A stretch of 31,902 bases of DNA from contig CAYNWI010000001.1 of NCBI GenBank assembly GCA_964400825.1, positions 1,166 through 33,067 on the forward strand. Reading direction: 5' to 3'. The number at the start of each line of letters is the position of its first letter. Position 1 is the first letter of the stretch. The notes under the pieces were generated by a model, which worked only from the letters and a program-made list of their open reading frames with translations, was not told where the DNA came from and ran no database searches. This stretch comes from an uncultured Anaerolineae bacterium (GTDB lineage Bacteria > Chloroflexota > Anaerolineae > VGOG01). This document shows, one piece after another, positions 26,327-28,156 of the stretch. The translations under genes were made by a program, and so were the position numbers.

Positions 26327-28156
26327 CTAATAGTAGTCCTCCCACTCCTCACGGTGACGGCCAGGCTTGCGGTGTCGCTTGGCTACCATCTTTCCTAGTT
26401 CCTCGTCGTAGACCAACTCGCGTCTTTTCTCTCTCCTGCGGCGCTCCTCTGATTCGTCTTCTTCTTCTTCTTCTTCCTCCTCGTACTCGTATATCTTCTC
26501 TTCTTCCTTGTGCTCCAAGGTGGGCTCTTCTTCGAGCGGCTCTTCGGCAGGCTTCGCCTCCTCGGCTGGCACTTCTTCCTCGGCGGCAGGCGCGGCTTCT
26601 GCCACCTCTTCGGCTACTTTTTCTACCTCCGGAGCAGCCACTTCCACCACTTCTTCCTCGACCGCTTCCACCGGCTCTTCCATGACTGCCTCGATCTCTT
26701 TGACCTCTTCTACTTCCTCGACGGGGATGAAGCCCTTAGCTTGCAGTTTATCTTTTAGCTCGTCTAGCGATTTCGGGCCGAAGTTCTTTGTGGCCAACAT
26801 CTTTTCATCGCCTTCGGCCAGCTTCTCCAGTATTTCCTCCACCGTGGCGAATCCCGCTTGATTGAGGGAGTTGTACACCCGCGGGCTGAGGCCCAACGAC
26901 TTGATGGGGACACCTTCTTCGACTCTCTCTTTGGTAACAGCCGTTTCTATTACATCAATGGCCTCTCTAAGCACCCGCATCTCTTGGGCCGTGGGAGGAG
27001 CCCCCTCTTTTTTCAGCAGAATAGTCTCGGCCAGGGCCAGGATGTCTTTCTTCTCGGCTACCGCGGCTACCTGGGCGATATCTTCTTCGTGGGCTTTTTG
27101 TAGTGCTTCCTCGGCAGCTTCTATCGCGCTCTTGATGTCAATGCGCCAACCGGTCAGCTTGGCCGCCAGGCGGGCGTTTTGCCCCCCTTTGCCGATGGCC
27201 AGGGAGAGCTGGTCGTCGGGCACGATGACGGTGGCCGTTCTGCCTCCGTTAGAATCGTCGTTCAGGTAAGTGTTCATGACCTTGGCTGGACTCAGGGAGT
27301 TGGCGATGAAAACGCCTGTGTCGAGATTCCATTCGATCACGTCAATCTTCTCCCCATTCAGTTCTTTGACCACGCTTTGAATCCTGACCCCGCGCATACC
27401 TACGCATGCCCCTACCGGATCTATCCCCGCTTGAACAGCGCCTACCGCCACCTTCGATCGCGAACCGGCTTCGCGGGCGATGGCTTTGATCTCGACCGTG
27501 CCGTTGAAGATTTCGGGCACTTCCAACTCCAGCAGGCGGCGGAGCATATTGCGGTGGGTGCGGGAGACGATGATATGGGGCCCGCGGTTGGTCTTGCGCA
27601 CCTCCAGGACGTAGGCCCGCACTCGCTGATTGAGCCGGTAGTACTCACCGGGGATCTGTTGACTCTTGGGAAGGAGGGCCTCGGTCCGGCCCAGGTTCAG
27701 GGTCACGCCCTGAGGCATGATATTCTGTACAGTACCGTTGATAAGCTCCCCCTCGCGCTCGACAAAACTGCTAAAAAGTACATCACGCTCAGCTTCGCGG
27801 ATGCGCTGCAAGATGACCTGTTTGGCCGTCTGGGCAGCGATGCGCCCGAAGTGCTCGGTGGTGTCCTCGAACGTCACTAGCTCACCTAACTCGGCCTTCT
27901 TGTTGATTCTCTGCGCCTCGGCCAGGGAAATCTCAAATTGCTCATTCTGGACTTCTTCTACCACCTCTTTGGAAATGTAGAGCCTGGCCTGTCCGGTCTC
28001 TGGATCCATCTTGGCCGTGACATTCTGGGATGAGCCGAAGTCTTTCTTGTAGGCCGTCAATAGGGCGACCTCGATGGCTTCCAGGACTACATCTTTGTCC
28101 AGACTTTTTTCATTGCAGATTTGGTCAAAAGCCACTGCGAAATCGCTCTTTTTCAA
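26327..28156 (-). CDS. nusA: Transcription elongation factor NusA with alpha-CTD-like domain and acidic tail
   Basis: FGRIAAQTAKQVI, S1 and KH domains (AREAGSRSKVAV, DPVGACVGMRG, QLSLAIGKGGQNARLA); TTG start after AGGAGG. Confidence 0.96.
   Translation of the reverse strand: MKKSDFAVAFDQICNEKSLDKDVVLEAIEVALLTAYKKDFGSSQNVTAKMDPETGQARLYISKEVVEEVQNEQFEISLAEAQRINKKAELGELVTFEDTTEHFGRIAAQTAKQVILQRIREAERDVLFSSFVEREGELINGTVQNIMPQGVTLNLGRTEALLPKSQQIPGEYYRLNQRVRAYVLEVRKTNRGPHIIVSRTHRNMLRRLLELEVPEIFNGTVEIKAIAREAGSRSKVAVGAVQAGIDPVGACVGMRGVRIQSVVKELNGEKIDVIEWNLDTGVFIANSLSPAKVMNTYLNDDSNGGRTATVIVPDDQLSLAIGKGGQNARLAAKLTGWRIDIKSAIEAAEEALQKAHEEDIAQVAAVAEKKDILALAETILLKKEGAPPTAQEMRVLREAIDVIETAVTKERVEEGVPIKSLGLSPRVYNSLNQAGFATVEEILEKLAEGDEKMLATKNFGPKSLDELKDKLQAKGFIPVEEVEEVKEIEAVMEEPVEAVEEEVVEVAAPEVEKVAEEVAEAAPAAEEEVPAEEAKPAEEPLEEEPTLEHKEEEKIYEYEEEEEEEEDESEERRRREKRRELVYDEELGKMVAKRHRKPGRHREEWEDYY

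Follow-up and report, generated by a model that had tools for sequence, protein, structure and literature searches.

In an Anaerolineae bacterium the housekeeping NusA ends in a lineage-specific arm where E. coli-type NusA has the repeats AR1 and AR2, and this arm contains an alpha-CTD-type domain, a genuine paralogue of the domain that forms the C-terminus of alpha in RNA polymerase. The source of the domain was an rpoA of Anaerolineae type, whose CTD-coding segment was copied; the fusion to NusA is real, occurs throughout the lineage and is under selection. NusA is universal and essential, and it regulates pausing, termination and transcription-translation coupling. To our knowledge, the wiring of its variable C-terminus to RNA polymerase has been described only for the AR repeats of the E. 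coli type, and our literature search on NusA in Anaerolineae/Chloroflexi and on NusA domain architecture did not find a description of an alpha-CTD-bearing NusA. In one bacterial class a duplicate of the alpha-CTD of the polymerase itself and a new end motif have taken the place of the AR repeats, and the same module has also been placed on a ribosomal protein, which shows the alpha-CTD to be a reusable module not confined to RpoA.

The nusA gene and the organization of its product

The window, i.e. the whole stretch of 31,902 nucleotides that was analysed, encodes nusA and its neighbours as listed below.

23829-25643, infB, operon context downstream of ylxR (IF-2 domains in the open reading frame)
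26043..26324, minus strand, ylxR (DUF448), directly 3' of the nusA stop codon (Pfam YlxR, 98.2 bits)
26327..28156, minus strand, nusA coding sequence, 609 codons and stop (TIGR01953; TTG start after AGGAGG)
26330..26458, minus strand, terminal basic motif of 43 residues, 567-609 (alignment A2, AF2, profile search)
26459..26728, minus strand, acidic Glu-rich disordered tail of 90 residues, 477-566 (composition, pLDDT)
26729..26914, minus strand, alpha-CTD-type (HhH)2 module of 62 residues, 415-476 (PF03118, fold matches)
26915..27127, minus strand, linker of two long predicted helices between KH2 and the module (AF2 models)
27128..28141, minus strand, NusA core NTD-S1-KH1-KH2 (Pfam matches, AF2)

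The likely start codon of nusA is the TTG at 28154-28156 on the minus strand, 9 nt after AGGAGG at 28166-28171, and the stop codon lies at 26327-26329, which gives a product of 609 amino acids; the residue numbers of the first-pass annotation agree with this start. The NusA model TIGR01953 matched the product with 422.6 bits (cut-off 253.4) and thus places it in the NusA family. A search of the genome did not find a second NusA, the copy in the window being the only one. The order nusA-ylxR has also been found in the relatives L080 and L081.

The core comprises the NTD (residues 6-125), S1 (135-193), KH1 (230-295) and KH2 (307-343), with Pfam matches in this order to NusA_N (133.9 bits), S1 (39.7 bits) and KH_5 (91.9 bits), weak ones to KH_1/KH_NusA_C and an AF2 pLDDT mostly above 90. 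The two helices of the linker are predicted at residues 344-381 and 390-413, with a pLDDT of 65-77 in the full-length AF2 model versus 85-94 in the model of the C-terminal part; within the family the linker is kept with a mean identity of 72%.

Identity of the module

The segment IKSLGLSPRVYNSL...NFGPKSLDELKDKL, proposed in the first-pass annotation to be alpha-CTD-like and placed at about 26729-26920, corresponds to residues 418-471 and falls inside that range. The PF03118 search suggested there bore the proposal out, with a match to residues 413-472 at 55.8 bits (E 3.8e-15, cut-off 23.8). When the whole genome was scanned with the same model, the NusA module scored 59.9 bits versus 71.6 for rpoA; eight RpoA models of NCBIfam match the module too, and a search of PDB sequences returned RNAP alpha in all 49 of 49 matches. 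The RpoA of this genome (L001:1453-2436, 327 aa) has a CTD of its own, to which the module is 51% identical in a gap-free BLASTP alignment over 67 residues (E 5e-20). Some NCBIfam alignments hinted that the similarity reached upstream into the alpha linker, which was rejected, as BLASTP limits it to the CTD. Since the module sits in NusA after KH2 and not on RpoA, it is a paralogous module and not an RNAP subunit.

The predicted structure agrees with this identity. In the model of the C-terminal part the module has a pLDDT of 90-95 and adopts a compact (HhH)2 fold that can be superposed on alpha-CTDs of known structure. The best 50 Foldseek matches of the predicted model are all alpha or alpha-CTD, with target-normalised TM scores of 0.81-0.89 and rmsd of 0.9-1.5 Å. 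Because all Foldseek E-values exceeded 1e-3 for this 266-residue model, of which about 60 residues are globular, we relied on the target-normalised TM scores and on VIA-align, which gave Z scores of 9.6 for 1z3e_B, 9.1 for 4mex_A and 8.1 for 5vi8_T. The alpha-CTDs of B. subtilis (1Z3E chain B, rmsd 2.2 Å over 64 residues) and E. coli (4MEX/1LB2) belong to the same HMM family as the module and share 41-43% identity with it.

The reading of the module as a diverged AR1/AR2-type acidic repeat, a generic HhH2 unit resembling alpha-CTD by chance, draws on the (HhH)2 fold and the position after KH2 that it shares with AR repeats and on a faint similarity to AR1 in hhalign (E 0.0022, 20% identity), but it is refuted: HHH_5 gave only 10.5 bits on the module (cut-off 27) against the 55.8 bits of PF03118, TIGR01954, the model of the NusA C-terminal duplication, gave no match to this NusA at E<=1, and hhalign assigned a probability of 97% to E. 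coli alpha-CTD versus 13% to AR1-AR2. The control behaved in the opposite way, E. coli AR1-AR2 reaching 59.7 bits with HHH_5 and 138.6 bits with TIGR01954 and showing no PF03118 or RpoA matches. The identity to the RpoA CTD of the same genome, the class-specific insertion and the nesting of the module inside RpoA CTDs (see below) also stand against this reading.

Origin, spread and selection

The module contains a 3-residue insertion around L446-E448 that is specific to Anaerolineae: it is present in the RpoA CTDs of this class (20 of 20) and in the modules of NusA and of the ribosomal protein bL31 (shortened in one NusA module), and missing from E. coli and from the RpoA of other Chloroflexota classes (17 of 17). 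A tree calculated after removal of the insertion columns places the modules of NusA and bL31, intermixed, in one clade (SH-aLRT 92) that is nested among Anaerolineae RpoA. The shared insertion and this nesting therefore identify the module as a copy of the rpoA CTD made within the lineage. In some NusAs it has been duplicated in tandem, and close copies are common to NusA and bL31 within a genome.

All 13 of 13 same-family relatives have the module. Across the class its distribution is patchy, with one or two copies per NusA: it was found in 20 of the 29 NusAs of the class-level set (the present one included), nine relatives being without it. The module has 612 database matches, and the best 120 of these 612 are nearly all NusA. 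The dN/dS of 0.22-0.26 shows that it is kept under purifying selection; the values against the two closest relatives, L080 and L081, were set aside as noisy owing to few substitutions. A NusA-alpha-CTD fusion was not found among the long open reading frames with an extra PF03118 match fetched from other Chloroflexota classes, those in G316 (L056) and G090 (L057), which are not NusA.

Contact surface of the module

Judged by sequence, the DNA-contact set of alpha-CTD (the '265 determinant') is present in the module: R426, N429, N458, G460, K462, S463 and E466 correspond to E. coli R265, N268, N294, G296, K298, S299 and E302. Among the 18 modules of family f1 the equivalents of R265, N268, G296 and E302 are kept in all, that of S299 in 17 and that of K298 in 15. 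These residues fit a module that binds DNA or an acidic ligand, and like the CTD of RpoA the module is flexibly tethered.

Other parts of the surface differ from those of alpha-CTD. The basic pair K271/R272 beside the DNA surface is lost (N432/Q433 here, non-basic in 17 of 18 family modules) and the equivalent of G279 is replaced by E440. V264, K271, R272 and G279, all invariant in RpoA, are changed in NusA modules. The sigma-contact '261 determinant' (D259, E261) is not preserved either, as S420 and G422 occupy its positions; in family f1 the first of these two positions is V, T, M or S and the second mostly G, whereas Anaerolineae RpoA keeps D/E. The core of the module also carries more negative charge than RpoA CTDs do (on average a net -3 versus -1.5). 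In module families other than f1, N268, N294 and S299 are not kept, and the module of family f19 is degenerate, with H in place of R265; across the class, therefore, the module cannot have DNA binding as its conserved role.

The acidic tail and the basic end motif

The tail of about 130 residues noticed in the first-pass annotation measures 133 (residues 477-609) and consists of an acidic part followed by a basic one. Residues 477-566 hold 41 D/E and 5 K/R, and their pLDDT is below 50 in both AF2 models; relatives keep the length and acidity of this part, not its sequence. The basic/aromatic ending was recognized correctly as well: residues 567-609 contain 14 K/R and close in ...RRRREKRRELVYDEELGKMVAKRHRKPGRHREEWEDYY. 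A basic cluster is followed there by a predicted beta-hairpin LVYDEELGKMVAKR (pLDDT 77-82), by RKPGRxRxxW and by an acidic/aromatic end, and in the alignment of the motif (A2) a D, an E and a G are invariant.

A profile of the end motif gave 409 matches, nearly all at protein C-termini, and 7 of 10 sampled matches are NusA fragments. In the phylum sample the motif is confined to the class Anaerolineae, where it is commoner than the module, and its dN/dS is 0.09-0.14; it is a separate conserved element. Against PDB sequences the profile found only non-significant matches (methyl-CoM reductase gamma, E 0.12; Rrs1, E 0.38). Complex prediction of the NusA module (A4) with the end motif (A2) gave a score of 0.00, which speaks neither for nor against a contact between them.

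Possible role of the arm

In E. coli, NusA contacts the alpha-CTDs through AR2 and the NTD and is autoinhibited by the acidic AR2; pause enhancement by the NTD depends on the alpha2-CTD, which binds there (PMC5842316). In the present NusA an equivalent of AR2 is absent according to the TIGR01954 and HHH_5 searches, leaving none for an alpha-CTD to relieve. The first-pass annotation suggested that the domain may be a built-in alpha-CTD mimic or an added module that binds DNA or an activator; the contact residues that it keeps agree with a binding role for DNA or an acidic ligand.

We propose, with a probability of roughly 55%, that the rpoA-derived module of this arm is a hand for DNA or an acidic ligand, joined to an electrostatic acidic/basic element. 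The arm consists of a two-helix stalk, the alpha-CTD paralogue, a disordered polyanionic spacer of about 90 residues and a basic beta-hairpin end motif. While NusA rides on the polymerase via its NTD, the stalk would hold out a third, NusA-borne alpha-CTD 'hand', and this hand may grip the DNA minor groove beside the elongation complex via its 265-type surface (R426/N429/N458/G460/K462/S463) or offer the same surface to an acidic DNA mimic. This would fix NusA in place or set its orientation, which in E. coli is the task of the AR2-alphaCTD contact. The acidic spacer and the basic tip would form a separate, older, class-wide element whose action is probably electrostatic, the element either masking itself or attaching to nucleic acid or the ribosome. 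For the module itself, a tethered hand that docks to DNA or to a partner is the most likely function. DNA binding near RNAP hardly accounts for the presence of the same module on bL31. If DNA is what the module binds, NusA would hold the template directly, and if it binds a protein common to bL31, a new, genetically visible coupling device would be at hand; either way, both the domain, which is defined, small and expressible, and the peptide of 43 residues lend themselves to direct binding tests.

Two other readings seem unlikely to us, in equal measure. The module may act in cis as an alpha-CTD mimic that fills the sites of the polymerase's own alpha-CTD, first of all the NusA NTD, either in permanent contact or in competition with RpoA and with regulators that bind alpha-CTD. 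The contact of the E. coli alpha2-CTD with the NTD, the close similarity of the module to the CTD of the cell's own RpoA, the class-specific insertion that both have, and a stalk whose modelled length would let it fold back would suit such a mimic. The full-length model, however, is without a docking signal, as the pLDDT of the module in it does not exceed that in the model of the C-terminal part alone, and the replacement of RpoA-invariant residues means that the partner surfaces may not be common to both domains.

The second of these readings takes the module for a docking unit by which NusA and bL31 address one common partner, linking the ribosome and the polymerase; NusA would extend to the ribosome or RNA with its basic end motif. 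The protein bL31 is located at the bridge of the ribosomal subunits. In a genome of the same family a bL31-alphaCTD fusion adjoins nusA (L011:3827-4291; Pfam L31 and PF03118), and the module of this fusion shares 84% (aa) and 81% (nt) identity with the NusA module versus 59% with RpoA; the mixing of NusA and bL31 modules in the tree points the same way. In other bacteria NusA C-terminal regions are reported to act as platforms for coupling or IF2 docking (PMC12297416; bioRxiv 10.1101/2020.02.28.970111), which would also favour an adaptor. Against it, the bL31 of the present genome (L034:1501-1803) has the stalk and no module, so that pairing is not obligatory, and many Anaerolineae with a bL31 module have only a degenerate NusA module.

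Less probable still is that the acidic and basic parts of the tail work as a block polyampholyte, which would mask the RNA-binding surfaces of S1/KH or the basic face of the module in free NusA, or would cluster NusA into condensates, with the module as a secondary addition. Extreme charge segregation, predicted disorder, the wider spread and stronger constraint of the end motif as compared with the module, and the autoinhibition of E. coli NusA by AR2 are consistent with a tail of this kind. A simple charge block, however, needs neither an invariant D, E and G nor a fixed hairpin pattern, and an intramolecular contact is not readable from the models. We give the same low standing to a hard-wired transcription-translation link, in which the mobile rpoA-derived module on NusA and bL31 would combine with the end hairpin and the insertion acting as a ligand-receptor pair.

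Relation to other C-terminal extensions

The anchoring hand that we favour and the AR repeats of E. coli-type NusA both provide an (HhH)2 unit of acidic character after KH2, and both arms are likely platforms for extra contacts with the transcription/translation machinery. The Anaerolineae module differs in coming from another HhH2 family and originated independently, from rpoA within the class; only the Anaerolineae protein has the disordered polyanion and the basic hairpin motif. From alpha-CTD on its usual alpha NTD the module is set apart by its place after KH2, by the acidic tail that follows and by its occurrence in one or two tandem copies. In Mycoplasma pneumoniae, in-cell expressome work has reportedly shown a C-terminal extension of NusA reaching towards the ribosome; it is likewise lineage-specific, is without an alpha-CTD module, and a sequence relation is not expected. 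The host protein of the bL31-alphaCTD fusion is ribosomal and lacks the end motif of NusA, but the module is of the same type, contains the same 3-residue insertion and is also carried on a helical or acidic stalk.

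Architecture of the window NusA

The nusA open reading frame is listed at 26327-28297 of the window on the minus strand; its most likely start is the TTG at 28154-28156, 9 nt 3′ of an AGGAGG, which gives a protein of 609 residues. The product matches the NusA equivalog-domain model with 422.6 bits (cut-off 253.4), no second NusA was found in this genome, and the gene order at the locus is the usual nusA-ylxR-infB. Since the ylxR ATG lies directly 3′ of the nusA stop codon (window 26324-26329), or alternatively a longer, GTG-started ylxR ORF would overlap nusA by 19 nt, the junction suggests translational coupling of the two genes.

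Features of the window NusA (residues)
6-125, NusA_N (Pfam)
135-193, S1 domain (Pfam)
230-295, KH_5 (Pfam)
307-343, second KH domain (Pfam)
413-472, RNA_pol_A_CTD, PF03118 (Pfam; 55.8 bits, cut-off 23.8, E 3.8e-15)
477-566, acidic stretch (41 D/E, 5 K/R)
567-609, basic end (14 K/R), including RRRREKRRELVYDEELGKMVAKRHRKPGRHREEWEDYY

The first-pass annotation had described an alpha-CTD-like segment after the KH domains and an acidic tail of about 130 residues with a basic end, and this was borne out in all respects: the segment (418-471) lies inside the PF03118 match, and 133 residues follow the domain, acidic up to residue 566 and basic from 567 with RRRREKRRELVYDEELGKMVAKRHRKPGRHREEWEDYY present.

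The C-terminal module belongs to the alpha-CTD family

The first-pass annotation had also proposed scoring the segment with PF03118 against a generic helix-hairpin-helix (HhH) repeat of the AR1/AR2 kind, and the outcome upheld its assignment. HHH_5, the Pfam family into which AR1/AR2 of E. coli NusA fall, reached only 10.5 bits on the window NusA, and with the same library E. coli NusA behaved in the opposite way (HHH_5 59.7 bits, PF03118 absent at E<=10). Among NCBIfam models eight RpoA models matched the window protein (31-50 bits, residues about 368-499) and TIGR01954, "NusA C-terminal duplication", did not, whereas E. coli NusA was matched by TIGR01954 (138.6 bits) and by no RpoA model. 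When residues 400-480 were compared by phmmer with all PDB sequences, all 49 distinct sequences found were RNA polymerase alpha subunits, the best being the B. subtilis alpha-CTD. A profile of 23 NusA modules aligned with the E. coli alpha-CTD at 97% probability (E 7e-11) and with E. coli AR1-AR2 at 13%.

The module is predicted with a pLDDT of 90-95 in the AF2 model of residues 344-609. Its 50 best Foldseek matches were RNA polymerase alpha chains throughout, isolated alpha-CTDs giving target TM 0.81-0.89 and rmsd 0.9-1.5 Å; an independent fold search was led by 1z3e_B (Z 9.6) and 4mex_A (Z 9.1), followed by a plastid alpha (Z 8.6) and the M. smegmatis alpha-CTD (Z 8.1), with HhH2 domains of other proteins, Rad51 N-termini among them, lower (Z 6-7.5). 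By sequence and predicted fold the module is thus a member of the alpha-CTD family, and these HMM, PDB-sequence, profile and fold comparisons, with their E. coli controls, rule out an AR repeat. While E. coli NusA carries AR1/AR2, the window NusA has an alpha-CTD-type HhH2 instead, that is, a different, independently acquired C-terminal module together with a new terminal motif. Neither an alpha-CTD on NusA nor this motif was found described in the literature searched; databases annotate these proteins as NusA or "alpha C-terminal domain-containing protein".

Origin of the module and its occurrence on bL31

PF03118 matches this genome at two places and no others, in rpoA (71.6 bits) and in nusA (59.9 bits). 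The NusA module is 51% identical to the RpoA CTD of the same genome over 67 gapless residues (E 5e-20), and no similarity between the two proteins was found outside the CTD. We aligned 25 NusA and four bL31 modules with RpoA CTDs from relatives in the class (20), from Chloroflexota outside it (17) and from E. coli. All 20 Anaerolineae RpoA CTDs and all four bL31 modules share a three-residue insertion (..EKL-xxG-DEE..); 24 of 25 NusA modules have it too, and the last has a shortened form. None of the 17 Chloroflexota RpoAs from outside the class has it, nor does that of E. coli. Its position (seen in RpoA of loci L001 and L035-L053, not of L059-L075) corresponds to the loop region of the E. 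coli activator-contact "287" area. With the insertion columns removed, a maximum-likelihood tree unites the NusA and bL31 modules in a single clade (SH-aLRT 92) that falls within the Anaerolineae RpoA CTDs, a placement that is supportive rather than conclusive because it comes from 68 columns and a quick method. Tree and indel together argue for a copying event in which an rpoA of the Anaerolineae type supplied the module.

A connection to bL31 is seen in a genome of the same family (G005), where rplU-rpmA-rpmE adjoins nusA divergently.

Features of the G005 locus (L011)
946-2961, minus strand, nusA, adjoining the bL31 locus
3827-4291, plus strand, bL31 fusion of 154 aa with a C-terminal PF03118 match (57.5 bits)

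This bL31 module shares 84% of its amino acids and 81% of its nucleotides with module 1 of NusA from G005, against only 59% identity to the RpoA CTD of that genome. The bL31 of the genome studied here (L034:1501-1803, contig C162; 100 aa) keeps the helical/acidic stalk that the bL31-alphaCTD fusions of relatives have, and has no alpha-CTD module, Ribosomal_L31 being its only Pfam match.

Retained residues, selection and proposed role

Residues were mapped in E. coli alpha-CTD numbering. In the NusA modules of the same family R265, N268, G296 and E302 are kept in 18 of 18, S299 in 17, K298 in 15 and N294 in 12; the window equivalents are R426, N429, G460, E466, S463, K462 and N458, respectively. 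This set makes the UP-element DNA contacts of the E. coli alpha-CTD. Four positions invariant in Anaerolineae RpoA are replaced in NusA modules (K271 by N/D, R272 by Q, G279 by E, V264 by T), and relative to the same RpoAs the D259 position is V/T and the E261 position G. The module core is the more acidic (mean net charge -3, against -1.5 for RpoA CTDs), and in NusA modules of other families only R265, G296 and K298 persist. By this mapping and the charge comparison, a DNA-type face is retained in the family, with adjacent surfaces remodelled and constraint uneven across the class. Against two relatives of about congeneric level the module has dN/dS 0.22-0.26, the NTD 0.25 and S1-KH 0.07-0.08; selection on the module is thus similar to that on the NTD and weaker than on S1-KH.

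Whereas the family, fold, origin, spread and selection of the module and its retained contact residues are shown, what it binds we infer as follows. In the reading we favour, it would be a tethered third alpha-CTD "hand" that holds, beside the elongation complex, either DNA by its minor groove or an acidic ligand that mimics DNA, standing in for the AR2-alphaCTD anchoring known in E. coli NusA (PMC5842316). Alternatively the module could act in cis, filling the alpha-CTD site of the NusA NTD; a contact between alpha-CTD and NusA NTD is present in the E. coli paused complex (PMC5842316). We consider this cis reading unlikely. A common docking module linking the ribosome, through bL31, with NusA and RNA polymerase has a similarly small chance. 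That the tail is an electrostatic autoinhibitory or clustering element is the least probable of the three.

Acidic tail and end motif

The module is placed between the stalk, a two-helix linker after the second KH domain, and the tail. Residues 480-557 are predicted to be disordered (pLDDT below 50 in both AF2 models), followed by a helix at about 547-577 of low to moderate confidence and a beta-hairpin on LVYDE-ELG-KMVAKR (pLDDT 77-82 in both models). A single complex prediction of module and end motif scored 0.00 and was counted neither way. The end motif consists of a basic cluster, xLVYDEELGxxVAKRxRKPGRxRxxW and an acidic end; in the alignment spanning several families its D, E and G do not vary, and its dN/dS is 0.09-0.14. 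Its profile found 409 proteins at E<=1e-3 among 1.84 billion representatives, and in nearly all of them the motif lies at the extreme C-terminus. Of ten proteins sampled, seven were NusA or fragments of it, some having PF03118 and some lacking it; the other three matched nothing in Pfam and probably represent just the tail. Within the phylum sample, 11 of the 16 genomes of the same class have it, in each case in an ORF of 611-747 aa; outside the class there was a single weak, short match. This class-wide spread and its presence in most module-free NusAs make the end motif a class-specific feature of NusA that is older, or in any case more widely distributed, than the module. Non-significant resemblances of the hairpin (xLVYDEelGevV) to methyl-CoM reductase gamma (E 0.12) and to Rrs1 of eukaryotic ribosome biogenesis (E 0.38) are probably due to chance.

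Distribution of the NusA module

In each of the 13 genomes of the same family NusA has the module, five of these NusAs (L011, L012, L013, L014 and L015; 657-679 aa) as tandem doubles, which in G005 are 86% identical to each other; the tandem recalls the AR1-AR2 arrangement. At class level, own genome included, it is found in 19 of 29 NusAs by Pfam and 20 by iterated profile, and is absent from nine with all HMMER filters off. NusAs of another Anaerolineae family (L076 of G073, L078 of G115) have a degenerate module at about residues 430-550, the same place as elsewhere (25-27 bits with the module profile; R265 equivalent H), which is not among the PF03118 matches of these genomes at E<=0.001. 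In an evenly drawn class sample NusA scores for PF03118 only in G279, and the second PF03118 match lies mostly in an ORF of 150-250 aa, a size that fits the bL31 fusions confirmed in L011 and L079. Per-genome PF03118 counts include five genomes flagged as unpublished (G301, G256, G068, G202, G174), with one match each, on which none of the specific statements here depends.

Run through a word index against 5.8 billion proteins, the module profile gave 612 matches at E<=1e-8; the best 120 of these are almost all NusA, those named being Anaerolineae, Thermoflexia or Chloroflexi, so the fusion is common in nature and is picked up by automatic Pfam annotation. No NusA with the module was found in the other Chloroflexota classes sampled, and two long ORFs there with extra PF03118 matches, when fetched, were not NusA. 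One of the two (L056, G316:C1, minus strand) encodes a 670-aa protein with a pair of HhH2 domains that resemble the alpha-CTD (36 and 11 bits with the module profile). The non-NusA protein P0209 (1362 aa), with PF03118, HHH_5, Sigma70 region 4 (PF04545) and PF22993 domains, is matched by the module profile at 202 bits and probably contains several alpha-CTD-type repeats.
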